A DNA stretch of 64,000 nt from a virus: positions 1 to 64,000 of IMG/VR virus record IMGVR_UViG_3300023184_000035. The stretch is one strand, 5' to 3'. Under the pieces are notes generated by a model. That model made no database searches and was not told where the DNA came from. It worked only from the letters and a program-made list of their open reading frames with translations. Shown one piece after another: positions 40,280 through 58,145 of the stretch (position 1 is its first letter; each line of letters opens with the position of its first letter). A program made the position numbers and the translations under genes.

Positions 40280-40639
40280 ATGAACATTATATTTGGCGAA
40301 GCCCTTGACACCATCCCTGACAACTATGTGGTATTGGAATTGGATACATTTGTATTGCCCCCGGACAGTAGAAAAGTCACATCGTATTGTGTGGTTGAAA
40401 AGATCGCCCTGCATGATTTCCCTGTGTTGGAGTCATACAAAAAAGTACACGCAGACTTGATACAGGCATATCGTGATCAAAACTGGGAGTACTGCGAGCA
40501 TGCCATCAAAGGGTTACTGGGCCGTTGGAATGGCGAAGCGGACACTTTTTATGAAAACTTGTTGACACGAGTGCAGGAATTCCAGGCCACGCCACCTGGT
40601 GACTACTGGACTGGCTATATCGACAAGACTGTGGCTTAA
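40280..40639 (+). CDS. hypothetical protein
   Basis: AAGGA SD; YR.QNW...PP..W.G resembles the C-terminal tail of some class III cyclases. Confidence 0.7.
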   Translation: MNIIFGEALDTIPDNYVVLELDTFVLPPDSRKVTSYCVVEKIALHDFPVLESYKKVHADLIQAYRDQNWEYCEHAIKGLLGRWNGEADTFYENLLTRVQEFQATPPGDYWTGYIDKTVA

Positions 40640-40923
40640 ATATTGTCAGGGTTGCTGCCAACTGTACCTGATCCCAGCACACATGCAGTGGTGTCTGTGT
40701 ATTCTACCACGGTCCAGGTTTTCTTTTGTTTATTTGCCAGCAATGTGATATGACTGTTGGTATCTGATTTGCCCACCCATACTGGTGTTTCTCCAAATTC
40801 TTTGGCAAAATGTGGTATCACAAAGTCTGCATTGCTACATTTTAATGGCTTTTGTAATTGAACAAGCTCTTGTGCTTGGCCAGTTAAACAAACCAATAAT
40901 GACAGTGCTAATAATTTTTTCAT
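40636..40923 (-). CDS. small exported protein (paralogue A)
   Basis: Signal peptide; C..EFGE..W.G..TVV.Y..AC. Confidence 0.75.
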   Translation of the reverse strand: MKKLLALSLLVCLTGQAQELVQLQKPLKCSNADFVIPHFAKEFGETPVWVGKSDTNSHITLLANKQKKTWTVVEYTDTTACVLGSGTVGSNPDNI

Positions 40924-41237
40924 TGTATACTTCCTGGCTCGGGACTACTTGAGGGTCCTGATGAATGTATACATGCAACATGAGCACTGTATTGTACCAC
41001 TGTAAATGATCCTGTAACACTATTACGCATGACTGCAATAGTTGTGGGCGATTTAGTTAGTTTGTCTTGTCCTACCCATATTTGTTCCTGACCAAATTCT
41101 CTAGCCAAGAACTCTAACATAGTTTGTGCCGGAGCACAATTCAATTGCACTTCTGCTTGGAACATGCGATCTGGTACTTGGGCGCCGGCTATAGAGCTAA
41201 TTAGGCAGAATAGGAACGCCATTATTAATTTTTGCAT
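40920..41237 (-). CDS. small exported protein (paralogue B)
   Basis: Signal peptide; same C..EFG..W.G..TVV.Y..AC pattern. Confidence 0.75.
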   Translation of the reverse strand: MQKLIMAFLFCLISSIAGAQVPDRMFQAEVQLNCAPAQTMLEFLAREFGQEQIWVGQDKLTKSPTTIAVMRNSVTGSFTVVQYSAHVACIHSSGPSSSPEPGSIQ

Positions 41238-41258
41238 AATGGATCCTTAAAATATTAT

Positions 41259-41777
41259 TTATTGCGTTGGGTTAGAGAGACAGCTTCTTTGTACTTCATT
41301 TAACATCATATAACGTTCACGCTGTCCGTGATAAACGTTATAAATTACCTCGGCAATGTCCCGAGTGATCTGCATGAATTCTGGATTACAATGATGCGGG
41401 AATGTTTGTACGAATGTTTTCTTTGTGTGGTCCCAGTTATTATCTCGCATGATGAATGCGTAATGTGTGAGTTCGTGACCCAGGCCCCAATCTATCATCT
41501 CATAACCATAATGTTTCAGTGTTTCGGGAGAGATGATGATTTGCATATCATAGTCAGAATCATCTGGTATGGGAAATTGAAACATCATTCTTGCTCCGGC
41601 TGGCAGCGTTTCAACAGTAATCGGAGGCATGGGTAAATCTACAGGGGCGCCCACACGCTGTTTGATAAATTTCCACTCTAGTTCAATCACTGGCCAATCT
41701 AAATCCGATATTCCCGGTTGGACGTTGGCTATAGAGCTAGTTAGGCAGAATAGGAACGCCATTGCTATGTATTTCAT
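41259..41777 (-). CDS. exported HExxH zinc-metallopeptidase-like protein
   Basis: Signal peptide; LGHELTHY and a downstream His. Confidence 0.65.
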   Translation of the reverse strand: MKYIAMAFLFCLTSSIANVQPGISDLDWPVIELEWKFIKQRVGAPVDLPMPPITVETLPAGARMMFQFPIPDDSDYDMQIIISPETLKHYGYEMIDWGLGHELTHYAFIMRDNNWDHTKKTFVQTFPHHCNPEFMQITRDIAEVIYNVYHGQRERYMMLNEVQRSCLSNPTQ

Positions 41778-41802: not shown

Positions 41803-42801
41803 TTACACAACAGGCACTAAATTATCCCTAAAAATTTCCCAAGCCCTGTCCCAGTTCCACCGCTGACTGCCATCAAATACCCGATGTCTGGGCAGGAACA
41901 AACAGTCAGTAACTGCTTGTTTTAACTGAGCATTGATACAGCCTGTTATACCTTCATCTATTACATCTAATGGACCTGTAGCAGGATACGCAGCTACCGG
42001 TGTGCCACAGGCCATGGCTTCGATCATCACAATGCCAAATGTCTCCCACTGGCTGGGAAACACAAACACATCTGCCAAATTGTAATAATATGCTAGATCA
42101 GCGCCAGTTTTGAATCCCACAAACTCCACGTCAGGATATCGAGACTCTAACTCTGCACGATATGGTCCATCCCCTACCATGATCTTGCGTGAGTTGGGGT
42201 AACTCATGCCGCAGAAATCATCCAGGTTTTTTTCTTTGCTGACTCTGCTGACACACACCAGCGTGGTCTTGGCATTGGGCAAGCGTTCTCTGGGATAGAA
42301 CACAGTGCGATCAACACCGCGTGTCCAGGAAATAATTTCTCCATCAAATCCATGTGCTTTTAATTCTCGAACCATGGTGTCAGTCGTGGTCAGCACCTTG
42401 CCTGAGTGTTTGTGGAACCAACGCACTAGAGGCCAAGTAACTGCTTCAGGGATGCCAAACAGTTTTCTAAGTCCTTCTGGAAACTTAGTATGATAAGCAG
42501 TATTGTACCTATAATGACGTTTGTCAAGATATTGTCTAACACGCAGACCAATAGGACCCTCGGTGGCGATGTGGATATGATCCGGACGGATCTCCTCAAG
42601 TATCGGGCCCAGGTTCCGCGGAAAGGCAATCTTGACTTCGTTGTAGCCAGGGCAATCAACATAGCGGAACCTCCGGGGATCAAGGTATACAACACGATAG
42701 TGATCCCGAATCGCACACGCCTCAATATTTTTGTAAGTGGTAACCACGCCATTGATCTGATCCGGTAAGTTATCTGTGACTATTAAGATTGTTTTTTGCA
42801 T
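41803..42801 (-). CDS. GT4 glycosyltransferase, Agt-like (glycosyl-diacylglycerol synthase)
   Basis: IVTD..PDQINGVVTT, IHIATEGPIG, YHTKFPE, RGVD, EKN, ETFGIVMIEAMACG. Confidence 0.85.
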   Translation of the reverse strand: MQKTILIVTDNLPDQINGVVTTYKNIEACAIRDHYRVVYLDPRRFRYVDCPGYNEVKIAFPRNLGPILEEIRPDHIHIATEGPIGLRVRQYLDKRHYRYNTAYHTKFPEGLRKLFGIPEAVTWPLVRWFHKHSGKVLTTTDTMVRELKAHGFDGEIISWTRGVDRTVFYPRERLPNAKTTLVCVSRVSKEKNLDDFCGMSYPNSRKIMVGDGPYRAELESRYPDVEFVGFKTGADLAYYYNLADVFVFPSQWETFGIVMIEAMACGTPVAAYPATGPLDVIDEGITGCINAQLKQAVTDCLFLPRHRVFDGSQRWNWDRAWEIFRDNLVPVV

Positions 42802-42956
42802 TCGCCCGTTACCTTGAATGTTTTAAACTTTAACTCATATCGCATGGTCGCCAGCACCTGTTCGCAACTGAGTTGATTTGGGAAAACTAATTCTATTCTT
42901 CCGGGTTGATCTTGCGGATTCGTTGTGTGTACTGCTATCAATATCATCAACCACAT
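42783..42956 (-). CDS. hidden 57-aa ORF overlapping both neighbours
   Basis: AGGAG SD; MWLMILIAVH...SCEQ...GECKKQS. Confidence 0.55.
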   Translation of the reverse strand: MWLMILIAVHTTNPQDQPGRIELVFPNQLSCEQVLATMRYELKFKTFKVTGECKKQS

Positions 42957-43707
42957 TGTCAGTCTCCTGTGTCCACGTTACAATTTCCCATGTGCCATCA
43001 TGCCGTTCTACCAAGGCAGTGCATGATTCTACCCAGTCGCCGTCGTTCATGTATACAACGCCATCTATATCTTTGATCTCTGCGTGATGTATGTGTCCGC
43101 AGATCACACCATCAAACCCACGCTTCTTGCAGTACTGTGCAAGATTGTGTTCAAAATGAAATATAAAGTCTACTGCTTTTTTGACCCGATGTTTAAGGAA
43201 CAGGCTAAGGCTAAAGTACCCAAAACCAAAATGATGACGAATCCAATTAATCCGAGTATTGAGTCCAAGAATGAAATCATATGCTTTGTCTCCCAACATT
43301 GCCAACCACGGCGCCAGTCTAGTGATGCCGTCAAACAGATCACCGTGTACCACAAGATAGTGCTTGCCGTCGGCACCTATGTGTTCAGTTTGATTTACCA
43401 ATTCAATTATGCCAAACCCAATGCCATATTGCATGAAGGGCCTTAGAAACTCGTCATGATTACCAGCCACATATACCACACGAGTACCACGTTTGCTATG
43501 ACCCAGCACACGGCGAATGACGTTGGTGTGACTTTGTTTCCAGCGCCATTTGTTTTGTTTGATTTTCCAAGCATCAATAATATCTCCCACAAGATATAGT
43601 GTTTCGCAAGTGTTGTGTTTGAGGAAGTTGTTGAGTTTGTCAGCCTGGCTGTCTTTAGTGCCAAGATGTACGTCGCTGATGAAAATGCTGCGATAAGTTT
43701 TTTGCAT
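42835..43707 (-). CDS. PlcP-like metallophosphoesterase (LpxH superfamily)
   Basis: ISDVHLG, LVGDIID, GNHD, HGD.FD, CGHIH, NDGDWVES; adjacent to the GT4 gene. Confidence 0.85.
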   Translation of the reverse strand: MQKTYRSIFISDVHLGTKDSQADKLNNFLKHNTCETLYLVGDIIDAWKIKQNKWRWKQSHTNVIRRVLGHSKRGTRVVYVAGNHDEFLRPFMQYGIGFGIIELVNQTEHIGADGKHYLVVHGDLFDGITRLAPWLAMLGDKAYDFILGLNTRINWIRHHFGFGYFSLSLFLKHRVKKAVDFIFHFEHNLAQYCKKRGFDGVICGHIHHAEIKDIDGVVYMNDGDWVESCTALVERHDGTWEIVTWTQETDNVVDDIDSSTHNESARSTRKNRISFPKSTQLRTGAGDHAI

Positions 43708-43728
43708 ATATTATTTAAATCTAGATGT

Positions 43729-43746
43729 GTTACAATAGCATTACAA
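43729..43746 (-). promoter_or_regulatory. Pho-box-like site upstream of the plcP-like gene
   Basis: Minus strand TTGTAAT-GCTA-TTGTAAC (11-nt period), then 9 nt, then TTTAAATAA. Confidence 0.7.
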
Positions 43747-43791: not shown

Positions 43792-44433
43792 GTGAAACCC
43801 ACCATAGCCCTTTTCATATACGATCCCAAATGCTCGGTGCAGAGCGGGAATGGGGTTATTCGGGCCTTGAGCCCACATTACAACATCAAGCTATTTTCAA
43901 AAAATCGTGTGGAAGATGTGTTCTTCAATGATGTAGACATGATTGTTGTGCCCGGCGGGTTTGGTGATGCAGATAGTTATGCCAGCCTGTTCAAAAACAA
44001 CGAAAAAAAAGTCAAAGATTTTGTTGCTGATGGGGGCAGATATCTGGGCATTTGCATGGGTGCATACTGGGCAGGCAGTCACTATCTTGATGTGTTGGAT
44101 AGTGTGGATGCAGTACAGTATTTGACACGCCCGGGCACAGACACACGCAGACCACATGCCAAGTCCATTAATGTGATGTGGCGGGGTCAGGCAGATCAGA
44201 TGTTTTGGTATGATGGGTGTGCGTTAGTTGGGGATTCAACAAAGTTTGAAACTGTGAGCACATACGCCAATGGTGATGCTATGGCCATCATACAGAACAG
44301 AATTGGCCTAATTGGCTGCCATCCCGAAGCAGACCGATTCTGGTACGACAGTTACTCATGGATGCGCCGACACTGGCGTGGCGGACATCACAACGTGCTG
44401 TTACAGTTTGCTGATGAGTTGATGACGAAGTAA
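43792..44433 (+). CDS. BPL_N / class I glutamine-amidotransferase-like protein
   Basis: VPGG, GGRYLGICMGAY, HPE triad. Confidence 0.8.
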   Translation: MKPTIALFIYDPKCSVQSGNGVIRALSPHYNIKLFSKNRVEDVFFNDVDMIVVPGGFGDADSYASLFKNNEKKVKDFVADGGRYLGICMGAYWAGSHYLDVLDSVDAVQYLTRPGTDTRRPHAKSINVMWRGQADQMFWYDGCALVGDSTKFETVSTYANGDAMAIIQNRIGLIGCHPEADRFWYDSYSWMRRHWRGGHHNVLLQFADELMTK

Positions 44434-45051
44434 TGTAACACCGTTTTCAAACGGAAAGTCCATGACTTGTATGTTGGGCTGTGTCTTTAGCTGATCAATG
44501 TAATCGCATACTGAATAATGGTACACTTGATCTGCACCGTAAATTCGGGAAGGATTTCTAGTCATGCTGTCATGGAACACCACAATGCTGTTGGTACTGA
44601 GTTGATCAACAAAGGCTTCATGATCGTACTGTGCTTGTTCAGCACTGTGATATCCGTCCACAAACAGTATGTCAATGTTGTGCAAATTGCGATACACATT
44701 GCTTTGCACAAACTCTTGAGTGGTTTTCTTGTGGTGTGTGATGTTGTTGGCATCGTAATGATCAAACCATTCACTCACACGTTCGGGCGACTGCCAGTGA
44801 TCATCCACCATGCCCGGATCCACAAAGTGTACTGTGCCGGCTTGGCCATTGTCCTGAATGCCACGGGCAAACATCATGGGCACAAACCCACGCCATGAGC
44901 CAATGCACACCACTGTGACCGGGCGGTACATACGTGCCAGTGCATAATACATCCAGCCCATACCCAAGTTCTTGTCCTCAGCACGTTGGCCATGCCCCAT
45001 GCTCATAAGTTCAGGATTGGCAACAATTTGTTCCAGCCAGGCGTTATTCAT
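44401..45051 (-). CDS. class I SAM methyltransferase (Methyltransf_24-like)
   Basis: IGSWRG, FVDGYH, VFHD. Confidence 0.85.
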   Translation of the reverse strand: MNNAWLEQIVANPELMSMGHGQRAEDKNLGMGWMYYALARMYRPVTVVCIGSWRGFVPMMFARGIQDNGQAGTVHFVDPGMVDDHWQSPERVSEWFDHYDANNITHHKKTTQEFVQSNVYRNLHNIDILFVDGYHSAEQAQYDHEAFVDQLSTNSIVVFHDSMTRNPSRIYGADQVYHYSVCDYIDQLKTQPNIQVMDFPFENGVTLLRHQLISKL

Positions 45052-46810
45052 TTCTGTACACTTTCAAAGGTTTGATATTGGCACTGTGTGGTGCAACCCA
45101 GTTCACAACATCATCGGGGTTTTCTATTAGGATTTGATCAAACTGATCCAAGGGCAAGCCCAGTTCTGCAACTTCGGCCTTGGTCATAATGCACACAGCA
45201 GACTCGACTTGTTGGTCAAATATCACTGCTCTGGCTGCGGTAAAGCCATTGGCAAAAGGTCTGCTCATGCACTTGCTGTTGATCCAAATGCCTGTGCTGG
45301 CACTGAATGCATTGCTGCCAGTGATCGCAGCCAGTTCATGTGCCAAATGCAAGTCATCTTGGCCCCATGATTCAACTATGACCATGTGCATGGGCACACG
45401 CACACCAGTTTGAAAAATGTGATCCACTATCTGTGTGATGCCATGATTGTAACCCACTTGTGGCACAGCATTTACTTCGCAGATCAGTGCGCCAGTTTCC
45501 AGCCAGCTTTGTGTGATGTCTGGAATCAACAGGTCAATGCCGGCAATGTCCAAGTCCATGACACGGGCAGCACGTAAACACAGTTGTTGATTGTCGGGAT
45601 GTACTGTGCTTTTGTCAATGGCCTGTGTGACACCACCTGCACTGGCATTGTTGCGTCGGCGCAGTTGCAGTTGTTCACCTGCTGACGGCACAGTGTTCAA
45701 CGTGTGTGACTGTTGTGTGAGCATGCCCACAACTTCATCGTCCACAGTCAAGGGTGGCACAGCGGATCCTATCAAGATAAATGGTTCTCCACCTTCGGGA
45801 CGTTTGATGTATCGTGATGGTCCTTGTTGTGCGTCAATCAGTTGTTGCACTGTGCTGACACCATCTCCTGTGACAGTGGCCGACAGTTTCTTGGTCACTG
45901 TGATGATGTTTTGATCCACAATGGTGATTCTGTGTCCCACACCTTCAAAGTGTCGCTCTACCAGGAACTGTGGCACAATCTTTGTGACTTCTGTGTAGGC
46001 ATGTTGCAAGTCTGCCTCTGTGGTGATACCAGCATACACGCCCTGACCATTGTCACGGTCATAAGGTTTGATCACTACAGGATAACCATAGTGCTGGGCT
46101 GCTTTGACAGTTTGTTCCCAGGTTGACACCACTTGATGTTCACTGCCCGGTAACCCTGCTAGGTTCAACAATTCAGCAGTGGAAATTTTGTTCTTGGCAT
46201 ACAACACAGCCTGTGCTGATGTGCGGCCAGTCATGGTGCTGCTGATGCGCTGTGAGTATTTTCCAGTACCCACCATGTGTGTGCCCGGCCATATTTGATT
46301 CACGGGCATGGCACGTTTCATGCACAGGGTCAACAAGAAGCCTTGATTCTGTCCTGGTAATCCATAACGGTCAAGATTGCTGGAAGCCCAGGCCACCAAG
46401 GGTTCAATGTCATGCGGTGCCGGTTGTGAGTACAAGTCAACAATGTCATTGGCAAATTTAAATGCTGTGGCAGTGGCATCCGGATTGGTCACACTCACTG
46501 CCACACGAAAACACACTGCACCTGCAGCAGACTTTTCACGGGTCAACACTTGATAACGATTGGACACAACCACACGATTCATGCCTTGCACAAAACAAGC
46601 CAGACCAATGCCGCGATGCAGCAGTTGCAATTCAACGTCATCAGTGTCAATGTGACTGACAAATCCCAACACACGATCCAGGTCCGCATCCATTGTGTCT
46701 TGATCAAATTGATCGGGTCGTTGTACAATGATATCCAACACAGCCATAGGCCCAAGTATGCCCAGGGCACTGCCTTCACAGGCCGAATACACTGTGCCAA
46801 GTTCAAGCAT
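45044..46810 (-). CDS. cyanophycin-synthetase-like ATP-grasp ligase
   Basis: GYPVVIKP, G.GV, LVE, GDGVSTV..LI, N.S.GG, GIDL, EVN; GGAGG SD before ATG 46810. Confidence 0.8.
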   Translation of the reverse strand: MLELGTVYSACEGSALGILGPMAVLDIIVQRPDQFDQDTMDADLDRVLGFVSHIDTDDVELQLLHRGIGLACFVQGMNRVVVSNRYQVLTREKSAAGAVCFRVAVSVTNPDATATAFKFANDIVDLYSQPAPHDIEPLVAWASSNLDRYGLPGQNQGFLLTLCMKRAMPVNQIWPGTHMVGTGKYSQRISSTMTGRTSAQAVLYAKNKISTAELLNLAGLPGSEHQVVSTWEQTVKAAQHYGYPVVIKPYDRDNGQGVYAGITTEADLQHAYTEVTKIVPQFLVERHFEGVGHRITIVDQNIITVTKKLSATVTGDGVSTVQQLIDAQQGPSRYIKRPEGGEPFILIGSAVPPLTVDDEVVGMLTQQSHTLNTVPSAGEQLQLRRRNNASAGGVTQAIDKSTVHPDNQQLCLRAARVMDLDIAGIDLLIPDITQSWLETGALICEVNAVPQVGYNHGITQIVDHIFQTGVRVPMHMVIVESWGQDDLHLAHELAAITGSNAFSASTGIWINSKCMSRPFANGFTAARAVIFDQQVESAVCIMTKAEVAELGLPLDQFDQILIENPDDVVNWVAPHSANIKPLKVYRNE

Positions 46811-47732
46811 CACCATCCTCCAGACGTTGTTCAAAGTAATCAACAAGATAGCGTTGTAATTCGGGTTGTGGCCTTGCCCAGTGCCAAGCACCGTTGTTGC
46901 CAACCACAATATCTGTGGCAGGATCAAATCCCAGTTGTTGTACAGGATCAAATCGATTCCAGTATCCGCGATTGGGTATTTCTCCGTGCCACAAATGATA
47001 TATGGTATGATCAATGTAACCCACACTGCCTTGCACAGTGGCGTAAAAAGAGTGGGCCCACTTCAAATAGTGTGCAAAATGTGCATCAGTCATGGGCACT
47101 GTGGTGGGTTGTCTTGCTAACTCACCATACGCCGCATGCAAGAACATTCGATCTCCTGCACCCACAATCATGGCGTCATACCACCCGTGTTGATCTATCA
47201 CATCTCTGCGTATGCACCAGGCCAAGCCCGGCATCACTGTGCGTCGAGGATGTCCCCAGGTGTACTGACTGCGTCGTTCTATGGCACCGATGCCATCAGA
47301 TTCAATCTTGGCAACAATGCTTTGTGCGTAATGCTCGTGACTGATTGAGATGTCGGTGTTGCCACGTTCAAGATCCACACTGCGAGAAAACAACTGCACC
47401 GCTTGGTATTGTTGAAGTTGTTGTTGCGCTTTTTCTACCCAGGAATCACTGTCAAACAACACATCACAATCAATCCAGGCCACGGCGTCACAGTCTGGCG
47501 GCAGGTGTTGCAGTGCAACGTTCAGCAGCCGTTCTTTTTGCCACAGCACAGCGCCACCATGCAGTTGTACCATGACATCGGCGTCGGTGGGCGCAAGTTC
47601 AAATTCTCCGTCAAAGCTGAGTTCCACAGTGATCAGTGGCACAGCCAGTTGTTTACGGAACCGTCGGTAATTGTTTAATTTGGTTTGATACCGGGCTGAA
47701 TTGAAATAGGTGGTGATTGCATACAAGTACAT
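46803..47732 (-). CDS. GT-A fold glycosyltransferase
   Basis: WQKERLLN, WIDCD (DxD), GAGD, HLWHG. Confidence 0.75.
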   Translation of the reverse strand: MYLYAITTYFNSARYQTKLNNYRRFRKQLAVPLITVELSFDGEFELAPTDADVMVQLHGGAVLWQKERLLNVALQHLPPDCDAVAWIDCDVLFDSDSWVEKAQQQLQQYQAVQLFSRSVDLERGNTDISISHEHYAQSIVAKIESDGIGAIERRSQYTWGHPRRTVMPGLAWCIRRDVIDQHGWYDAMIVGAGDRMFLHAAYGELARQPTTVPMTDAHFAHYLKWAHSFYATVQGSVGYIDHTIYHLWHGEIPNRGYWNRFDPVQQLGFDPATDIVVGNNGAWHWARPQPELQRYLVDYFEQRLEDGDA

Positions 47733-47768: not shown

Positions 47769-48476
47769 TTAATAGCCAAATCTTGTTTTGTATGTGGCGT
47801 ATAGGGATTGTACAGTGGTCAAGTCCAACACACCGTTGTAAACTTTGATGAAACCTATGTTGCCAGTTTGCACTTCACTGCCGGCTGATCTACTGAACAT
47901 TCGCAACTGATTGAAACCACCGCCGCCCGCATTGGTTGTAGAAAATGCCACAGCGGATGGCTGAGTGTTTGTTGCAGTGTACAGTTGTCCCAAACTGGTT
48001 GTGGTGTTCCAGGTGGCCCAACCAAAGTGCCATATCAGGTCAGCGCCAGACCCGGGCAAGTTCACTGACACGTTGGGATAGAATGTGTCAGGGTTGCCGT
48101 TGTACAAGCCCATGAGCCAATCTTTTGATGCTTCACTTTGAGTGTTCAACAATCTACCATTGGCCACGTTGGTTCTTTGATAGGCCATGAACACACTGTA
48201 ACTCTGGCTGGTAACGTAATTAGGACCTCCATACATGGTGTCTGTGGTTGAGGTGCCGGATCCAGTGAAAGTAAAAATTCCACCATTGGTGGCGCTCCAA
48301 CCCAGTCTACTGCCAGCATTGGCCACTGTGATGGTATAAGCACCTGTGCCAGCCACTGTGCTTCCTGTAGTAGGCACAGCCGCATAGTTGGCAGCATCTA
48401 GGTCATACACCAATGTGGGGGCAGATGACACTGCTGGCCTCCAGTTGCTGATAGCAGACTGCATGATACCACTCAT
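47769..48476 (-). CDS. LamG/concanavalin-like tail-associated protein
   Basis: LDAANY N-motif; IG...VYN..L...Y...K.RFG C-motif. Confidence 0.75.
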   Translation of the reverse strand: MSGIMQSAISNWRPAVSSAPTLVYDLDAANYAAVPTTGSTVAGTGAYTITVANAGSRLGWSATNGGIFTFTGSGTSTTDTMYGGPNYVTSQSYSVFMAYQRTNVANGRLLNTQSEASKDWLMGLYNGNPDTFYPNVSVNLPGSGADLIWHFGWATWNTTTSLGQLYTATNTQPSAVAFSTTNAGGGGFNQLRMFSRSAGSEVQTGNIGFIKVYNGVLDLTTVQSLYATYKTRFGY

Positions 48477-51400
48477 CAAGTGACTCCTGTGCCGTTGATA
48501 AACCAAGTGTTGGTAGCCACTTTCATAATGGTGGCCATTCCGTATGTGCTGACAACTCTGTTGCCTGCGGTTGAGTTACCAGCAAAGTAAAGTGTTGTGC
48601 CTGCTTGTGTGACCACCAGCACATTGCCTGCTGCCTGCACTACTAGGCTGAGTGCTGTGCCCACAGGGAATGCCACGTTGGCATTGTCTGGTAAGGTCAG
48701 TGCTAAGTTGCCAGCTGTGGTTGAATAGTAGTGTTTGCCAGCATCGGTTAGTGCTGCTGTGGCATTGGCAGAAAAACTCACCTGTGGAATATCTCTGTAA
48801 CCAATGGCAAATCCAGCTGTGTTGCCTGAAATGTTACCTGTACCAGATATAATGCCTGTGCCAAACAGTATGTTGCCACCTGTTATATTGCCAGTGCCAC
48901 TCACAATGCCTGTGCCAAATAACACGTTGCCACCAGTGATGTTGCCTGTGCCACTCACGATGCCTGTGCCAAACAGTATGTTGCCACCAGTGATATTGCC
49001 TGTAGTTGACACAGTAGTTCCAGTTACATTGCCAACGTGTGTGCCAAGTATATTGCCACCTGAAATATTGGCAGTGGTGGTGATGTTGGCAGCACTGACC
49101 AGAGCACTAACAACATTACTAGATAAACTCAATCCAGCTGCATTCAAGTTGCCACCAGTGATATTGCCTGTAGTTGACACTGTTGTGCCAGTTACATTGC
49201 CCACATGCGTTCCAAGTATATTGCCACCTGAAATATTGGCAGTGGTGGTGATGTTGGCAGCACTGACCAGAGCACTTACAACATTACCACTGAGGCTCAA
49301 TCCTGCACCGTTCAGTGTATTGGCACTGGTGATGTTACCTAAGGCACTTATGGTGCCGCCAGTGATGCCTGGACCAACTCTGATGTCCAGGGCTATGACA
49401 TTGCCTGTGGTAGAAATATTACCACCTGTGTTGATATTACCACCTGTGACATTGCCTGTGGCCGAAACTGTGTTGGTGGACAACAGCACACCTGACACTG
49501 CAATGTTACCACCAGTGATATTGCCGGTGCCTGACACTGTGCCAGTAGCAAATGCCACATTACCATTGAATGTTGCACCATTCACATTGCCGCCGGTGCT
49601 GATCACACCCGATCCTGCCAATATGTTGCCACCTGTGATGTTGCCGGTAGTGCTTATGGGATTTGTGCCCAGCGCAGCCAAGTTGGCCACTACGTTGGCA
49701 TTGCCATAAGAACCTGTGATTCCTGTCAATTGACTACCATTACCCAGTATGTAACTGCCTGTGATGTTGCCAGCCACACTTATAGCATTGCCGTAAGTGA
49801 TTTCTTTTGAAGTGGCATTGTAGAACATCACATTGCCAATGTTGGCCACATCATTGCGCACCGGTGCCACAGTGAATGTGTTGGCAGTGGTCTGATTCAG
49901 GTTAGCGCCAGTGGCGTTCAGAATGATTGAGTTATTGCCTTGTGAGGTTGCACCAGCGTATGCACCAATAGCCACTGCTGCATTGCCTTGATTGGTATTG
50001 CCGGCATACACACCAATGGCCACTGCATTTGCGCTTTGCAAGTTAAAGCCAGCCTGGCTGCCAATGGCTATTGCTGAAAAACCTTGTGTGAATTGACCAG
50101 CACTGGCACCAATAGCTATAGCTTGATCAGATTGTGTAACTCCACCAGCTGTGTCGCCAATTCCTATCGAGTATCGACCTTGTGTATCATAACCAGCGGC
50201 TGCACCAACTGCCACAGAGTTATTGCCTTGTGTGGTCTTGCCAGCCCACCAACCAACTGCTACTGCAAAATTCTTTTGTGTAGTTGCACCAGCTTCTCGT
50301 CCAAATGCTACTGCATTGGCAACGGTGTTTGTAATTGTTGCACCGTTTGTGAGTGTGATCATGCCAGTGCTGATGTTGCCGCCGGTGATGTTGCCAGCCA
50401 CACTTATAGCATTACCATAAGTGACTTCTTTTGTGGTGGCATTGTAAAACATCACATTGGCAATATTGGCCACATCATTGCGCACTGGTGCCACAGTGAA
50501 TGTGTTGGCTGTGGTTTGATTTAAGGCCACACCTGTGGCGTTCAGAATGATTGAGTTATTGCCTTGTGAGGTTGCACCAGCGTATGCACCAATAGCCACT
50601 GCTGCATTGCCTTGTGAGGATTCGCCAGCTGACTCACCAACTGCTACTGCACTATTGCCTTGTGAGACATAACCAGCACTGGCTCCAACTGCCACTGCTG
50701 CATTGCCTTGTGCAGTATTGCCAGCATAAGATCCTATGGCCACTGCTATAGAACCTTGATTGGAAAATCCAGCCTGGGTACCAATTGCTATTGCATTGGC
50801 ACTTTGATTGGACGACCCAGAATCAGTGCCAATTGCCACGGCATTGATACCCTGATCTTGATAACCAGAATGATCGCCCACGGCCACTGCTGAGTTGCCT
50901 TGTAAATTTTGACCTGCAGCATAACCAATGGCCACAGCGGCAGTGCCTTGTGGCTGCCAGGCAGTCCATTCAGTGCCTGGGTCAGGAGTTCCGGTAATGG
51001 CCTGACTGAGGTCTAAAAATTCACCAGTCGGGTCAATGTTCACAACAAAAGTGTCATCCGGCACAAATTCGCCAGTTATGCGCTGTCCAATTCTGATGTC
51101 TGCGTTTGGAGAGATTGTTATCGCAGTGCCACTGCCGCTCTGGTATAGTATACCAAATGTGGTGCCTGCAGCACCAGCACTATCACCAATAGCCACTGCC
51201 GTGATGCCCTGGAAATTTTGACCAGCAGCATAACCAATGGCCACAGCGGCAGGTAGTTGATTGTAGAGCCCAGCCCAATAACCAACAGCCACAGAATTGG
51301 CACCTTGTGAGGTATTGCCGGACAGTTCACCAATGGCCACAGCCGACGAACCTTGTGCATACGAAGCTGCATTGGCACCAATTGCCACTGCTGATAATTG

Positions 51401-52915
51401 TTGACTGACTAGACCAGCACCATAACCAATGGCCACGGCCTGTTCACCTTGACCACTGGTCCCGGCTGTGTTACCAATGGCCACAGAGAAGCGTCCTTGA
51501 CTGAATTGTCCGGCCTTTTGCCCAATGGCCACAGCGTCTTCACCTTGAACATTGTATCCGGCGTCTTCGCCAATGGCCACTGCACGGGTACCTTGTTGGT
51601 AGTAACCCGCCTTGTAGCCCACGGCCACAGCATTGACAGCTTGAGTAAACTCACCAGCATTGGCGCCCACAGCCACTGCATTGGCACTTTGATTGCTATA
51701 ACCAGCAAACTCACCAACAGCCACTGTTCTTATGCTTTGATTCTGCCGACCAGCTGAATAACCAATGGCCACTGCACCATCAGCCTGGAAAGAATATCCT
51801 GCTTGATAACCAACGGCTGTGGAGTATGGACCTTGTCCTATGGTGAATACAAGACTTGCACCATCTGTCAGCGGCGCTGTGGGATACTGATTCAATGTCA
51901 CAACACTGCATCCTGCGCTCTGCACAAATGTGTTGGCAGGAATGTCGGTTCCAGTGACTCGCATTGGGTATACCAAGTTGCTGGCGTCGTTGACGCCGAT
52001 CACAAGGCCCACAAATGTCAAAGAGTCACCAGATGACATGGCTGCTGTGTAGTTTGGAGTGATATCAACTCGGTCTTCGCCAGGGAATATGCCTGTGACC
52101 ACTGTGTTGGCCTGAATGTTGTTGCCAAATACTAGTTGGCTGACCGCAATATTGGCAGTGCTGGCCACATACAATCTGCTGGGCTGAGGTGCTAATACCC
52201 CAGGGGTATAAGTTGTGACCGGTCCTGATCCGCCTTGGGCATCGCTCACACTTCGGTACAAGGTTCCACCAACACCAGCTTGATATCCAATGGCCACACC
52301 GCGGCTTTGATTTTGGTATCCAGCTTGGTAACCAATGGCAATGGAATCTTCACCTTGATACAGACTGCCAGCACTAGAACCAATGGCCACAGCGTGTTGG
52401 GCTTGACTGGTATTACCGGCATTTTGCCCAAACGCCACACTGTCACCTGACGTGTCGTTGAGTAAAGCACCATTGGGCAATGTTATTTTATGATTTAATC
52501 CAAAAGACCATTGTTCTGAGCCGTTGGTAGAGACATAAGCACCTGTGTTATCGACCCACATCCAATTGAGTTCATCATTACTGCCCAATTCTGCATAACC
52601 GCCTGGCCCTGCTATTAAATCAACACCGCCACCAGCATAAGAACCAATTTTACTATTACCGGGTAATGTTAAATTACCAGTTGTGCCAAAGGTCCATACA
52701 CTGTTGGCACTGGCTGATTGTATTGTGACATTACCGTCACTGGTGGCTATGTTGATAATGCTGTTGCCATTGGCAATGGGCAATCCGCCACCAAAATAGT
52801 TGGTTAAATTTGCCCCGGTGATCTGATATGTGACGCCACCTGCCACAACAGGGATTTCAGCGGCGTCTGTCATTGTTGTCAGACTTGGTAGTTGGGAGAT
52901 TTTTACGTTTGCCAT
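48476..52915 (-). CDS. long tail fibre/adhesin with YadA-like AVAIG repeats
   Basis: MANVKISQL start; dozens of 15-aa AVAIG..AG...Q repeats; GNITGGN repeats. Confidence 0.88.
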   Translation of the reverse strand: MANVKISQLPSLTTMTDAAEIPVVAGGVTYQITGANLTNYFGGGLPIANGNSIINIATSDGNVTIQSASANSVWTFGTTGNLTLPGNSKIGSYAGGGVDLIAGPGGYAELGSNDELNWMWVDNTGAYVSTNGSEQWSFGLNHKITLPNGALLNDTSGDSVAFGQNAGNTSQAQHAVAIGSSAGSLYQGEDSIAIGYQAGYQNQSRGVAIGYQAGVGGTLYRSVSDAQGGSGPVTTYTPGVLAPQPSRLYVASTANIAVSQLVFGNNIQANTVVTGIFPGEDRVDITPNYTAAMSSGDSLTFVGLVIGVNDASNLVYPMRVTGTDIPANTFVQSAGCSVVTLNQYPTAPLTDGASLVFTIGQGPYSTAVGYQAGYSFQADGAVAIGYSAGRQNQSIRTVAVGEFAGYSNQSANAVAVGANAGEFTQAVNAVAVGYKAGYYQQGTRAVAIGEDAGYNVQGEDAVAIGQKAGQFSQGRFSVAIGNTAGTSGQGEQAVAIGYGAGLVSQQLSAVAIGANAASYAQGSSAVAIGELSGNTSQGANSVAVGYWAGLYNQLPAAVAIGYAAGQNFQGITAVAIGDSAGAAGTTFGILYQSGSGTAITISPNADIRIGQRITGEFVPDDTFVVNIDPTGEFLDLSQAITGTPDPGTEWTAWQPQGTAAVAIGYAAGQNLQGNSAVAVGDHSGYQDQGINAVAIGTDSGSSNQSANAIAIGTQAGFSNQGSIAVAIGSYAGNTAQGNAAVAVGASAGYVSQGNSAVAVGESAGESSQGNAAVAIGAYAGATSQGNNSIILNATGVALNQTTANTFTVAPVRNDVANIANVMFYNATTKEVTYGNAISVAGNITGGNISTGMITLTNGATITNTVANAVAFGREAGATTQKNFAVAVGWWAGKTTQGNNSVAVGAAAGYDTQGRYSIGIGDTAGGVTQSDQAIAIGASAGQFTQGFSAIAIGSQAGFNLQSANAVAIGVYAGNTNQGNAAVAIGAYAGATSQGNNSIILNATGANLNQTTANTFTVAPVRNDVANIGNVMFYNATSKEITYGNAISVAGNITGSYILGNGSQLTGITGSYGNANVVANLAALGTNPISTTGNITGGNILAGSGVISTGGNVNGATFNGNVAFATGTVSGTGNITGGNIAVSGVLLSTNTVSATGNVTGGNINTGGNISTTGNVIALDIRVGPGITGGTISALGNITSANTLNGAGLSLSGNVVSALVSAANITTTANISGGNILGTHVGNVTGTTVSTTGNITGGNLNAAGLSLSSNVVSALVSAANITTTANISGGNILGTHVGNVTGTTVSTTGNITGGNILFGTGIVSGTGNITGGNVLFGTGIVSGTGNITGGNILFGTGIISGTGNISGNTAGFAIGYRDIPQVSFSANATAALTDAGKHYYSTTAGNLALTLPDNANVAFPVGTALSLVVQAAGNVLVVTQAGTTLYFAGNSTAGNRVVSTYGMATIMKVATNTWFINGTGVT

Positions 52916-53185: not shown

Positions 53186-54337
53186 TCAGAAGCGGAACTG
53201 CATGCCAATCGCCACAGCGTGTTGGGCATACTTGCTGTCTGAGTATGTTGATCCGTCTGCATTGGGAATCCAACGATCATAGATTGTGAATGGTGAAACT
53301 GCACCACTAGCACGATCAGCTCTTACATAATCAATAAAGATTTCTGTACGCTTATCAAATGCGTAGGTAGCACCAACAGCAGCCATTTTCACATTGTCAA
53401 TACCGGCAGTGATTTTATCTGTCACACTGTAGTAACCACCGTTCAGGCTCACACGGTCCGAAACTTTGTACTTGGCACCAACAAACCATGTGTCTGCGTC
53501 TGTCTTACCATTTGCATAGCTTGAGCTAGAGTAGTATGTGGTCTGTGACGTTGGGTTACGTGTTTCTGCATAGCCTGCGTTTAGTGTCAATGCAGGAGTA
53601 ACAGCATATTTGGCAGCAACCAAGTCAATGTTTTCGCTGACTACTGTATTGCTCAAACGTGCTTCTTCGTGTGTGTATGCTAGATCCAATGGACCATCAG
53701 TGTAACGAACACCTGCGTTGTAGCTGGACTTGTAGCTGGTGTCACCCAATTGGTTGCCGGCTGCGTATGCATAATCAAACTTCAAACCACCAAAACTGGG
53801 TGATGTGTAACGAATCATGTTGTCAAATCTGCTAACACCTGAACCTGAGTAGAAACCAGCATAACGAGCTACTGATTTAGCACCACCAAAGTTCCAGTTA
53901 CCACGTGAGTCAAACTCATCAAGTACGTTGTACAAGAAGTTCTTGCCACGACCCAATTGTAATTGGCCGTATTCTTTGTTGCTTAGTGCCACGTTGGCTT
54001 CACGGTCAAACAATGTTGTGCCTGCTGAACCTGTTGCGCCAGAGTCTTTACCGGCTGCACCAGTACGTGCGCTGAAGTTACCTTCCATTTGGAAGCTGGC
54101 CTTGAAGCCGTCACCCAGGTCCTGTGAACCTTTGAAGCCAAAGCGATTGCTGTTGTGTAGTTGTTCACCTACACCTGAAAAGTCTTGATTGCTAGAACCA
54201 AAACCACTTCCACTGACTGCGCCAACACCAATAACACCATACAATTCTGTATTGCGAGCTGCGTCCTGTGCCTGTGCTGCGCTGGTAGCGATACCAACGG
54301 TCAACAATGCGGCTAGAACAATTTTTGTAAATTTCAT
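53186..54337 (-). CDS. Gram-negative trimeric porin (betaproteobacterial type)
   Basis: Signal peptide, LYG, RFGFKGSQDLG.G.KA.F..E, FDREA.V.L, Y.FDKRT, C-terminal F. Confidence 0.92.
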   Translation of the reverse strand: MKFTKIVLAALLTVGIATSAAQAQDAARNTELYGVIGVGAVSGSGFGSSNQDFSGVGEQLHNSNRFGFKGSQDLGDGFKASFQMEGNFSARTGAAGKDSGATGSAGTTLFDREANVALSNKEYGQLQLGRGKNFLYNVLDEFDSRGNWNFGGAKSVARYAGFYSGSGVSRFDNMIRYTSPSFGGLKFDYAYAAGNQLGDTSYKSSYNAGVRYTDGPLDLAYTHEEARLSNTVVSENIDLVAAKYAVTPALTLNAGYAETRNPTSQTTYYSSSSYANGKTDADTWFVGAKYKVSDRVSLNGGYYSVTDKITAGIDNVKMAAVGATYAFDKRTEIFIDYVRADRASGAVSPFTIYDRWIPNADGSTYSDSKYAQHAVAIGMQFRF

Positions 54338-54365
54338 AGTTTCTCCTTTTTAATTTACTCTTAAT

Positions 54366-54393
54366 AGTATAACATATTATGTAGCTTTGTCAA
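54366..54393 (-). promoter_or_regulatory. sigma70-type promoter of the porin
   Basis: Minus strand TTGACA-16 nt-TATACT with extended TG. Confidence 0.65.
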
Positions 54394-54404
54394 GCCTGCA
54401 TAAT

Positions 54405-55421
54405 TTATTTCTTGATCTGTGTCCAAACGTCACTGCGGATGCGATCCGTTAGTGATTTTGGCAATGGCACGTAATCAAGATCAGCAGCCATTTTACCACC
54501 ATTCACAAATGCCCAGTCAAAGAACTTGATGGTTTCTTGGCTGTTCTTTGCATTTTTTGGTTCACGGTACATCAACACAAATGTTGCGCCTGTGATGGGC
54601 CATGATTGTGCGCCCTTTTGATTTACCAAACTGATACCCATGCCTGGAACTGAGAACCAGTCTGCACCCTTGGCAGCTGACGCAAACGTTTCATCATCAG
54701 GTTCCACCCACTTGCCATCGCGATTTTGCAATTTAACATGGGTCATTTTGTTCTTTTTAGCATAAGCATATTCCACGTATCCAATTGAATTCTTCACACG
54801 ACTCACATTGGCTGCAACACCCTCGTTGCCCTTGCCACCCACACTACTGGTAGCAGGCCATTTGACAGCGGCACCCCGGCCAACTTCTTCTTTCCAAACG
54901 GCGCTGACTTCAGTCAAGTAGTCTGTGAAAATAAATGTTGTTCCTGACCCATCTGCACGATGCACCACTGTGATGTTGGCATCGGGCAATTTTACTTTGG
55001 GATTTAACTCTTGAATACGTCGGTCATTCCACATAACAATGTGACCAACAAATATCTTGGCCAAGACTTCACCAGTTAACTGTAACTCGCCAGGTTTAAC
55101 GCCTTCTACATTGATCACAGGAACAACACCGCCCAGCACTGTGGGGAATTGTACAAGTCCTGCGGCTGTTAAATCATCACCTTTAAGGGGTGCATCTGTT
55201 GCGCCAAAGTCCACTGTGGCTGCTTTGATTTGCTTGATACCACCTGAACTGCCAATGCTTTGATAGTTAAGTTCAATGCCAGCTTTTTCCTTGTATGCTT
55301 CTGACCACTTGCTATAAATGGGAAAGGGGAAGGTTGCGCCTGCCCCTGTGATTGTTTCTGAATTTGCCTGCGGGCTCATCAAATACAATGACGCCGCAAT
55401 TACTGCTAAGATTTTTTTCAT
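54405..55421 (-). CDS. pstS: phosphate-binding protein PstS
   Basis: GAGATFP, YQSIGSSGG, DFGATD, RADGSGTT, IGYVE, WPI. Confidence 0.97.
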   Translation of the reverse strand: MKKILAVIAASLYLMSPQANSETITGAGATFPFPIYSKWSEAYKEKAGIELNYQSIGSSGGIKQIKAATVDFGATDAPLKGDDLTAAGLVQFPTVLGGVVPVINVEGVKPGELQLTGEVLAKIFVGHIVMWNDRRIQELNPKVKLPDANITVVHRADGSGTTFIFTDYLTEVSAVWKEEVGRGAAVKWPATSSVGGKGNEGVAANVSRVKNSIGYVEYAYAKKNKMTHVKLQNRDGKWVEPDDETFASAAKGADWFSVPGMGISLVNQKGAQSWPITGATFVLMYREPKNAKNSQETIKFFDWAFVNGGKMAADLDYVPLPKSLTDRIRSDVWTQIKK

Positions 55422-55473
55422 GTGTTTGTTCCTTTGTGAATGTGCAATGCACAAATTATTTAAACACAAAGAT

Positions 55474-55502
55474 GTTACAGTAGTGTTACAGTTTCTTGAC
55501 TG
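55474..55502 (-). promoter_or_regulatory. Pho box upstream of pstS
   Basis: Minus strand CAGTCAA-GAAA-CTGTAAC-ACTA-CTGTAAC, then 9 nt, then TTTAAATAA. Confidence 0.85.
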
Positions 55503-56903: not shown

Positions 56904-58145
56904 ATGAAAAAAATTGGTTTTATTGGGATTGGCAAGTTGGGTCTCGATTGTGCAGAAGTCATGGCTGAGAAGCATGAAGTACGGGGTTACGATATTTACC
57001 CACGCTCTAGCGACTCAGTAAAAGTCTGTGGCATTGACGAGCTAGTGAACGAAAGCGAATGGATCTTTATTGCTGTGCCCACACCACATGCACCAGGCTA
57101 CGATGGATCAGTGCCCAGCAGCCACATGGAGCCTCGAGACTTTGGGCATGACGCTGTGATTGATGCTATTAAGAATGTGAACCGGTATGCAACCACACCC
57201 AAAAAGGTTGTGTTGATCAGTACTGTATTACCAGGTACCACACGCAAACACTTTTATCCATTACTGGATTCAAAACATCAGTTCCTGTACAACCCTTACT
57301 TGATTGCCATGGGCAGTGTGAAGTGGGATATGATTAATCCTGAAATGGTCATGATTGGAACAGAAGATGGCAACCCCAATGCCTTGGCAGGTGAACTAAT
57401 AGACCTGTACAAGACCATCATGGCGAACGATCCACGTTACGAAATTGGCACCTGGGACGAATGCGAAGCCATCAAGATCTTCTACAACACATTCATCTCT
57501 GCCAAAGTTGGCTTGGTCAACATGATTCAAGACTTTGCACTACGCATTGGCAACATCAATGTTGATGTAGTTACAGATGCTCTAGCACGTAGCACCATGC
57601 GTATCATGGGACCCAAGTACATGACAGCAGGCATGGGCGATGCAGGTGCATGTCATCCCAGAGACAACATTGCCCTGCGTTGGTTGGCCAAGGAATACAA
57701 CATTGGATATGACTTGTTTGACACTGTGATGCATGCACGTGAAGTGCAGGCCAAGAACTTGGCCATGTACTTGTTGGACCTGAGTGTGATGAACAACGAT
57801 ATGCCCATTGTGATCCATGGCAAAGCATACAAGCCTGATGTTGAGTATTGCATTGGATCTTACTCAACACTTGTGGGACACTACATTGAACAAGAAGGCC
57901 GTCAAGTTGTATACGTTGATCCCTTGGCAGATGATCCCACTAATGTTGTGGCCACTGTGGACACTCCGGCAATCTTTTTGTGGGCACACAACCGCAAAAT
58001 CACATACGAATACACAGGTGATCAATTGGACACACTGCCCTACTGCAACATCATGTCAGGCAGTATCATTGTTGATCCATGGCGCAAACTAACATCAACT
58101 CCCGAGGTCGAAGTTGTCCACTACGGTAACACCCGAGTTCATTAA
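56904..58145 (+). CDS. ugd: UDP-glucose/GDP-mannose 6-dehydrogenase
   Basis: GIGKLG, IAVPTP, STVLPGT, E.IK..YN, GACHPRD, AYKP. Confidence 0.9.
   Translation: MKKIGFIGIGKLGLDCAEVMAEKHEVRGYDIYPRSSDSVKVCGIDELVNESEWIFIAVPTPHAPGYDGSVPSSHMEPRDFGHDAVIDAIKNVNRYATTPKKVVLISTVLPGTTRKHFYPLLDSKHQFLYNPYLIAMGSVKWDMINPEMVMIGTEDGNPNALAGELIDLYKTIMANDPRYEIGTWDECEAIKIFYNTFISAKVGLVNMIQDFALRIGNINVDVVTDALARSTMRIMGPKYMTAGMGDAGACHPRDNIALRWLAKEYNIGYDLFDTVMHAREVQAKNLAMYLLDLSVMNNDMPIVIHGKAYKPDVEYCIGSYSTLVGHYIEQEGRQVVYVDPLADDPTNVVATVDTPAIFLWAHNRKITYEYTGDQLDTLPYCNIMSGSIIVDPWRKLTSTPEVEVVHYGNTRVH

Follow-up and report, generated by a model that had tools for sequence, protein, structure and literature searches.

Phosphate-uptake genes carried by phages are a textbook case of viral reprogramming of host metabolism, and the cyanophage genes pstS and phoA are reportedly under the control of the host PhoBR system, as Zeng and Chisholm are said to have found in 2012. 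In bacteria, lipid renovation operons encoding PlcP and Agt lead from phospholipid through diacylglycerol to glycolipid (PMC4796936, PMC8528852, PMC9239053, PMC13691135), with examples in Sinorhizobium meliloti (SMc00171), Phaeobacter MED193, SAR11 HTCC7211, Pseudomonas aeruginosa (PA3219-PA3218), Methylosinus OB3b and Burkholderia cenocepacia (plcP-agt-dagK). Here we describe a related cassette on phage DNA. The stretch analysed (the window) comprises positions 1 to 64,000 of the IMG/VR virus record IMGVR_UViG_3300023184_000035, a linear record of 148,133 bp with 46% G+C that is about 42% complete by CheckV. We read the cassette as a three-gene operon, consisting of a plcP-like esterase gene, a small gene for a 57-amino-acid (aa) protein and an agt-like gene for a glycosyltransferase of family GT4, which stands behind a Pho-box promoter and swaps host phospholipid for glycolipid, and we put the probability of this reading at roughly 0.7 (Table 1).

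The cassette resembles the bacterial PlcP-Agt operons in having an esterase of the same clade, an Agt-related GT4 directly after it, a Pho box upstream and a predicted chemistry of the same kind. It departs from them in being carried by a phage, in its phage-specific, overlapping 57-aa gene, in the Glu that stands in place of the catalytic Asp of Agt, and in the lack of dagK; furthermore, its promoter predicts a leaderless mRNA, and its relatives exchange the GT4 for a GT2/GT21-like enzyme. With the cyanophage genes it shares the placing of phosphorus-economy genes behind host Pho boxes, where induction is expected under phosphate starvation. However, cyanophage pstS and phoA serve uptake and the use of external organic phosphorus, whereas the cassette would target the lipids of the host membrane, and its host is taken here to be a freshwater proteobacterium instead of a cyanobacterium.

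An earlier reading of the letters of this stretch alone (the sequence-only reading) had taken the DNA for that of a phage and had drawn the operon as a GNHD-type metallophosphoesterase gene followed by a GT4 gene. The phage origin holds: among the genes of the IMG/VR record are those for tail fibres, for a virion structural protein (phrog_5838, E 1e-160) and for head decoration, along with those for a ribonucleotide reductase, a DNA ligase and a DnaB-type helicase. Both enzyme genes are also as described, a 290-aa Metallophos protein with the motif GNHDEF preceding a 332-aa GT4; what had been overlooked is the 57-aa gene, P0123, which makes the operon one of three genes. What was computed here is the family of each enzyme, the order of the genes and how conserved and specific the control site is; counts of gene partners and neighbours refer to the best 80 viral loci, and box counts to 85 related loci.

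Table 1. Features of the esterase operon, of the pstS-porin operon and of their control sites, in window coordinates.
Feature	Coordinates	Strand	Basis or remark
PlcP-type metallophosphoesterase P0001, 290 aa	42835..43707	-	Metallophos domain, GNHDEF motif
Conserved 57-aa protein P0123	42783..42956	-	AGGAG ribosome-binding site, start 7 nt later; open reading frame conservation
GT4 glycosyltransferase P0002, 332 aa, diverged Agt relative	41803..42801	-	Domain match, Agt-residue comparison (PMC8231724)
Pho-box-like direct repeat TTGTAAT-GCTA-TTGTAAC, two 7-nt half-sites, 11-nt period	43729..43746	-	Sequence reading
TTTAAATAA with -10-like TAAATA	43711..43719	-	9 nt past the box; then TAT, ATG at 43707
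Second site CTGTAAC-ACTA-CTGTAAC (55491-55474), 9 nt, TTTAAATAA (55464-55456)	55456..55491	-	Upstream of pstS
Phage pstS, periplasmic phosphate-binding protein	54405..55421	-	Reference gene of the predicted shared regulon
Porin_4 porin	53186..54337	-	Domain match; directly 3' of pstS

We place the esterase P0001 among the LpxH-like metallophosphoesterases, in the PlcP branch and apart from LpxH itself. Its metal-binding set is complete (D12-x-H14, GD42, GNH84D, H121, GH205-x-H207 and GD224) and invariant in the alignment (A3). The LpxH equivalog NF003743 (NCBIfam) gives it 45.9 bits against a cut-off of 134, and TIGR01854 gives 36.6 bits against a cut-off of 190; the sequences of solved LpxH structures match it at an E-value of about 2e-4 only, with GNHDEF aligned to GNRDFL. 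When the same LpxH model is run on five bacterial genomes, true LpxH scores 239-339 bits and a second paralog, present in three of the five, scores 36-39 bits. Scored against P0001, the paralogs of those three genomes reach 214-268 bits and true LpxH 18-30 bits, PlcP-like proteins overall ranging from 156 to 559 bits. The signature motifs of the PlcP clade, GDI[IV]D.W, GNHDE, CGHIH and YMNDGDWV, likewise differ from the GDLFE.W, GNRDFL, HGHTH and VLGDW of LpxH.

In a maximum-likelihood tree of 79 proteins, LpxH is set apart at a support of 100 by the Shimodaira-Hasegawa-like approximate likelihood ratio test (SH-aLRT), and all 35 esterases of uncultured phages fall into one clade (SH-aLRT 99) nested among alphaproteobacterial proteins. 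This clade also takes in one 2.7-kb contig binned to a Competibacteraceae metagenome-assembled genome (MAG), and the homolog of Pelagibacter phage Mosig stands beside Hyphomonadaceae and Parvularcula. Since the tree is a 'quick' one with several long branches, we rely only on the split from LpxH and on the phage clade. Tree, bit scores and motifs agree in grouping P0001 with PlcP-type proteins, apart from true LpxH, which is where the sequence-only reading had placed it. A homolog was found in 104 of 151 genomes sampled from the order of a Hyphomicrobiales MAG, mostly at 45-56% identity, and identity to the uncharacterised alphaproteobacterial orthologs is mostly 45-58%; characterised PlcPs are 46-51% identical among themselves (PMC8528852, PMC9239053).

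The AlphaFold2 model of P0001 is confident in the core and less so in the helical insertion at 123-195. The catalytic core spans approximately residues 1-246 and is followed by a disordered tail (247-290) that lacks conservation. Searched against the PDB, the model has LpxH structures as all of its 23 best matches, with E-values about four orders better than those of other metallophosphoesterases, which suggests that P0001 is a metallophosphoesterase of the lipid-binding type. LpxH and P0001 would thus share the fold, the helical lipid-binding insertion and the metal-binding scaffold, whereas they differ in clade and in signature motifs, and P0001 scores far under the equivalog cut-off.

The glycosyltransferase gene directly follows. 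The order plcP then agt is the 'type 2' arrangement of Sebastian et al. (PMC4796936), and among the bacterial loci compared here, 22, mostly from Alphaproteobacteria, have directly 3' of the esterase gene a GT4 with 34-42% identity to P0002. The Agt/GTcp group is marked by the motifs GRVAxEKN and FPSxTDTFG, and the 334-aa Agt enzyme of SAR11 has His104 as its catalytic residue, Arg163 and Trp320 as contacts to diacylglycerol, and an essential Asp256 (PMC8231724). The bacterial plcP-linked GT4s carry both motifs. P0002 is collinear with the SAR11 enzyme and keeps His104, Thr160-Arg161, Arg186, Lys191, Thr254-Phe255-Gly256, Glu261 and Trp317, which correspond to positions where mutation inactivates that enzyme; these kept residues are invariant in 29 phage sequences. 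Its own motifs read SRVSKEKN and FPSQWETFG, so that both depart from the Agt forms, and the counterpart of Asp256 is Glu253. The closest phage relatives of P0002 share FPSxWETFG, and a second phage GT4 subgroup, 52-56% identical to P0002, retains the Asp (xDTFG). Because the catalytic Asp is a Glu, we do not file P0002 as a proven Agt: it is related to Agt and probably works like Agt. The Agt-like GT4 of the sequence-only reading stands as a homolog of the GT4 that follows plcP in Alphaproteobacteria, with Glu in place of the essential Asp as a correction.

In related phages the place of the GT4 may be taken by a 239-aa GT2, which also passes the cut-off of Glyco_transf_21; GT21 is a family of processive lipid glycosyltransferases (PMC8231724). 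A gene of the UDP-glucose/GDP-mannose dehydrogenase family lies 13 kb from the cassette (56904-58145, plus strand), with no box before it, and its product could supply UDP-glucuronate for a glucuronosyl lipid.

The small gene P0123 shares 122 nt with the end of the esterase gene, in another frame, and 19 nt with the start of the GT4 gene. Its frame is free of stops in about 80 related viral loci, while the frame of the esterase tail over the same DNA has stops in many of them, which fits the disordered esterase tail. In an alignment of 31 sequences (A1), residues M1, W2, A8, D16, P18, F25, C31 and C53 are invariant, and AlphaFold2 predicts a strand-strand-helix-strand arrangement (pLDDT 90). 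P0123 has no Pfam match and no PDB fold match with E <0.001, and its profile, run on 40 bacterial plcP loci and on those of phages Mosig and S-SRM01, finds no match; the protein thus appears to be specific to this phage clade.

Upstream of the esterase gene, and divergent from it, lies a BPL_N/class I glutamine-amidotransferase-like gene (43795-44433, plus strand). Since this neighbour runs the opposite way from about 43795, the esterase gene needs a promoter within the 87 nt between the two genes, where the box lies. The sequence-only reading had reported here a repeat TTGTAAT-N4-TTGTAAC, 9 nt before TTTAAATAA, and the same geometry before pstS; both are present, with box, 9 nt and TTTAAATAA spaced alike at the two sites. 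Across the 148,133-bp record the pattern YTGTAAY-N4-YTGTAAY occurs exactly twice, before the esterase operon and before pstS, against 0.02 occurrences expected from 50 shuffles. TTTAAATAA has four copies in the record, counting both strands, and stands at equal spacing from the box at both sites. A loosened box pattern adds one further site in the record, CTGTCAC-ATAA-CTGTGAC at 91879-91896 (plus strand), which lies outside the window and is partly palindromic.

This arrangement is conserved. In the 85 related viral loci (1.1 Mb, both strands), YTGT[AC]AY-N4-YTGT[AC]AY occurs 30 times, against 0.9 times in shuffled sequence (maximum 3; first-order Markov). All 30 sites are correctly oriented, 22 directly before the esterase gene, seven before pstS and one at a contig end; the check on box conservation that the sequence-only reading had named thus comes out in its favour, with 29 of 30 sites in related phage DNA preceding one gene or the other. 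The consensus of 29 unique sites is TTGTAAC-N4-YTGTAAY-N10-TAAATA, in which spacer and flanks are almost free of information and TAAATA, 10 nt past the box and outside the search pattern, holds 1.4-1.6 bits per position. Half-sites in the relatives include TGTCAC and TGTCAT besides TGTAAC, a range that spans the classical consensus CTGTCAT-N4-CTGTCAT, which is quoted in PMC8528852 together with the Pho box consensus CTGTCATNNNNCTGTCAT. The predicted promoter would therefore have two 7-nt repeats with a 4-nt spacer in place of a -35 element, about 10 nt upstream of the -10. Similar elements precede cellular genes: of the 25 nearest cellular relatives of the phage pstS, 13 have TGTCA/TGTAA repeats with an 11-nt period within 280 nt upstream, and these account for 14 of the 17 matches in all 188 kb of the loci.

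No winged-helix DNA-binding domain of the OmpR/PhoB type is encoded in the 148 kb of the record, which makes host PhoB the natural reader of the site, with the proviso that 58% of the genome is missing; we accordingly predict that the site is read by host PhoB. In most lineages TAAATA ends 4-7 nt before the esterase ATG, without a Shine-Dalgarno sequence, and the simplest reading is that the plcP mRNA would be leaderless or nearly so. The pstS copies of the promoter have a leader of 25-45 nt with a Shine-Dalgarno sequence. A terminator scan found no convincing terminator within the esterase operon or right after it.

Judged by its occurrence in sequence collections, the cassette is very widespread and not a one-off. 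Confirmed esterase matches lie on at least 597 IMG/VR contigs, mostly of metagenomic origin, and a large protein collection contains thousands of esterase relatives, the best 120 at 76-94% identity; some relatives come from phage-like contigs (146, 188, 359 and 513 kb) densely packed with small open reading frames (ORFs). The gene after the esterase is a P0002-type GT4 in 38/80 loci and the 239-aa GT2 in 36/80, and is missing in 6/80 (mostly at contig ends), so that a glycosyltransferase (GT4 or GT2/GT21-like) directly follows the esterase in 74 of the 80. In 17 of them the 3-kb flanks of the esterase include pstS. Three short contigs in MAG bins of Haliscomenobacter, Bacteroidia and Competibacteraceae (L001, L002 and L010) carry a cassette of the phage type, with esterases that are 53-80% identical to P0001 and fall inside the phage clade; L010 also has an adjoining pstS. 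These are probably phage contigs placed in bacterial bins.

Among cultured phages, Pelagibacter phage Mosig EXVC030M (47% identity) and Synechococcus phage S-SRM01 (36% identity) have esterase homologs of the same PlcP-like clade as P0001. In Mosig, a cultured SAR11 phage (MT647606.1; L048 2894-4729), the homolog is annotated as UDP-2,3-diacylglucosamine hydrolase and is divergent from pstS across a 150-nt gap; the S-SRM01 homolog stands alone. Unlike the cassette described here, neither has an adjoining glycosyltransferase gene or a 57-aa gene.

That PhoB binds the site, that the two enzymes act as named, which sugar is transferred, what the 57-aa protein does and how the phage profits are matters that we infer from these results. 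We envision that in a phosphate-starved infected cell host PhoB~P would bind the box and switch on both the esterase operon and the pstS-porin operon. PstS and the porin would increase phosphate uptake, while the esterase, as an Mn-type, LpxH-like enzyme of the PlcP branch, would cut the phosphorylated head group off host glycerophospholipids and leave diacylglycerol. The GT4 would then move a sugar from a UDP-sugar onto the diacylglycerol, yielding a phosphorus-free glycolipid with which the membrane stays intact, and the freed phosphate esters would enter the phosphate pool needed for phage DNA synthesis. A broader history can be proposed only tentatively, at somewhat less than even odds: a plcP gene captured once may have spread among diverse freshwater phages of about 150-500 kb and become a phage-specific, PhoB-switched module of leaderless plcP, an overlapping gene for a 57-aa protein of a new fold family, and interchangeable glycolipid synthase. 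On such a history, infected cells in phosphorus-poor lakes would turn phospholipids into glycolipids under viral control, a new class of auxiliary metabolic function that would touch the phosphorus cycle and the lipid biomarkers of lakes.

Several observations weigh against the lipid-swapping operon. P0002 has Glu253 where Agt has Asp256, and in the SAR11 enzyme the D256E exchange costs >90% of the activity (PMC8231724). Its identity of 34-42% to Agt-type proteins lies under the 46-58% found inside the described Agt/GTcp group, which is <25% identical to other GT4 enzymes (PMC8231724); validated Agts of other species have a mutual identity of 35-43% (PMC9239053, PMC8528852). About half of the relatives use the other glycosyltransferase, so the lipid product may differ among them. 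At the control site, only 3-4 nt separate the -10-like element from the ATG, a distance that demands leaderless translation or another transcription start; the strict box precedes the esterase in 22 viral loci only, and in some lineages another ORF stands immediately before the gene. The box pattern is also absent, with one exception, upstream of 35 bacterial plcP genes, mostly alphaproteobacterial, whose genomes may use another half-site. No phosphatase was identified beside the operon, although PlcP frees phosphorylated head groups and not free phosphate. Finally, the placement of both enzymes leans on bacterial orthologs that are uncharacterised and on residues taken from the literature, the characterised proteins SMc00171, MED193_17359, PB7211_983/960, PA3219/3218 and Atu2297 being outside the comparison set.

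As a rival explanation, both enzymes could act as proposed and yet serve another end, such as a block to superinfection, a change of receptor or porin, or keeping a starving host alive until the infection ends. We consider this unlikely. In its favour, lipid renovation alters the protein content of bacterial membranes and phage attachment (PMC9804370, PMC9938194), and the cassette stands among envelope-related genes, namely those for the porin, the small exported proteins and the UDP-glucose dehydrogenase. The shared control site and the repeated clustering with pstS nevertheless tie the cassette to phosphorus economy, and an envelope benefit and a phosphorus supply are not mutually exclusive. 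It is rather improbable that the esterase is of the PlcP type while the acceptor of the glycosyltransferase is something other than diacylglycerol (the lipopolysaccharide (LPS) core, a protein or another lipid), in which case no glyco-diacylglycerol would be made. The exchange of the catalytic Asp for Glu in P0002, with that of the neighbouring Thr for Trp, the GT2 found instead of GT4 in 36 of the 80 loci, and the fact that all NCBIfam matches are far under their cut-offs would suit such an enzyme; against them stand the retention of all remaining Agt donor and diacylglycerol-contact residues, the Asp kept in the second phage GT4 subgroup, the match of the GT2 alternative to the GT21 lipid glycosyltransferase family, and a gene position directly after plcP, like that in bacterial operons.

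The control site could also belong, as operator or promoter, to another regulator, whether encoded by the phage or not, and serve the two operons by chance. Compared with the classical TGTCAT, the half-site TGTAAC has one or two changed positions, and in a record that is about 42% complete a phage regulator could sit in the missing part. We nevertheless judge this distinctly improbable, as related phage DNA (1.1 Mb) has the element before no genes other than pstS and plcP, TGTCAC and TGTCAT variants occur in the relatives and similar boxes before cellular pstS, PhoB-dependent promoters have this geometry of 7+4+7 and then 10 nt to the -10, and the 148 kb of the record encode no winged-helix regulator. 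Hardly any weight falls on the proposal that the esterase is a true LpxH and that the pair alters lipid A or LPS synthesis. Automatic naming points that way, the IMG, Mosig and S-SRM01 records calling the esterase an LpxH-type UDP-2,3-diacylglucosamine hydrolase, diphosphatase or pyrophosphatase, and the nearest solved folds are those of LpxH; the score of 45.9 bits against 134, the separation in the tree at a support of 100, GNHD in place of GNRD along with the other clade motifs, and the genomes in which true LpxH and a P0001-like protein are separate paralogs all argue otherwise. A Pho-box-driven exchange of host phospholipid for glycolipid remains the reading that we prefer.

Full-text literature searches turned up neither a paper connecting plcP with phages or auxiliary metabolic genes nor a description of a phage PlcP. 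The words phage and virus were not found in the bacterial PlcP papers searched, including PMC4796936; an article reviewing lipid renovation in P. aeruginosa and phage therapy (PMC9804370) mentions no phage-encoded PlcP, and the genome announcement of Mosig does not discuss the esterase gene. A viral metatranscriptome from Lake Baikal tabulates lpxH (K03269) under lipopolysaccharide biosynthesis (PMC9611531). If the preferred reading is true, a phage pathway that mines the host membrane for phosphorus would form a second, internal route besides uptake; "lpxH" matches in viromes would need to be reread, and a viral source would be added for the glycolipids measured in phosphorus-poor waters. The cassette also offers natural variants for enzymology, with Asp or Glu in the active site of an Agt relative and GT4 or GT2 as the partner of the esterase, and in the overlapping 57-aa gene and the predicted leaderless promoter two small, well-conserved oddities.

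The DNA comes from a large tailed phage, uncultured, of freshwater origin and without a close cultured relative. Comparison of proteins with cultured phages gave no close relative (the helicase is 47% identical to that of Pseudomonas phage PA5oct, and the virion protein 43-49% to those of cyanomyoviruses), and a DNA-level search of the phage collection with the record gave no match. The phage PstS is 54-65% identical to proteins of the sampled GTDB Gammaproteobacteria and 50-59% to those of Alphaproteobacteria, which leaves the class of the host undecided, and porin similarity narrows the host to Pseudomonadota only; genome G463 gave a weak PstS match, on which nothing here is built. Two sampled bacterial genomes (G183 and G396) have 46% G+C around pstS and TGTCAT/TGTAAY boxes before it; LpxH is present in both, and a PlcP-like paralog is not detectable in either with the LpxH model. 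Given their similarly low G+C, their related pstS and the lack of such a paralog, some hosts may have no lipid-renovation pathway of their own.

Of the surrounding genes, pstS and the porin gene directly after it (53186-55491, including the second Pho-box-like site) are predicted to form a phosphate-uptake pair of the phage. Porin homologs of 69-71% identity lie near pstS and the esterase in four related loci (L050, L053, L061 and L073). Between the two operons, 48476-52915 (minus strand) is occupied by a 1479-aa ORF without a Pfam match, and 44401-47026 (minus strand) by a Methyltransf_24 methyltransferase gene (216 aa) that overlaps the gene of a 660-aa protein with ATP-grasp matches; neither the methyltransferase nor the ATP-grasp-like protein is kept beside the cassette in relatives. 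After the GT4 gene, three small ORFs (172, 105 and 95 aa; 40636-41777, minus strand) encode proteins with signal peptides; the 105- and 95-aa ORFs are apparently paralogs, as both match the same stretches in relatives. In 11 related viral loci they are neighbours of the cassette, at times on its opposite side, and homologs of the BPL_N/glutamine-amidotransferase-like gene lie at most 3 kb from it in about 35 of the 80 related loci, in varying positions.

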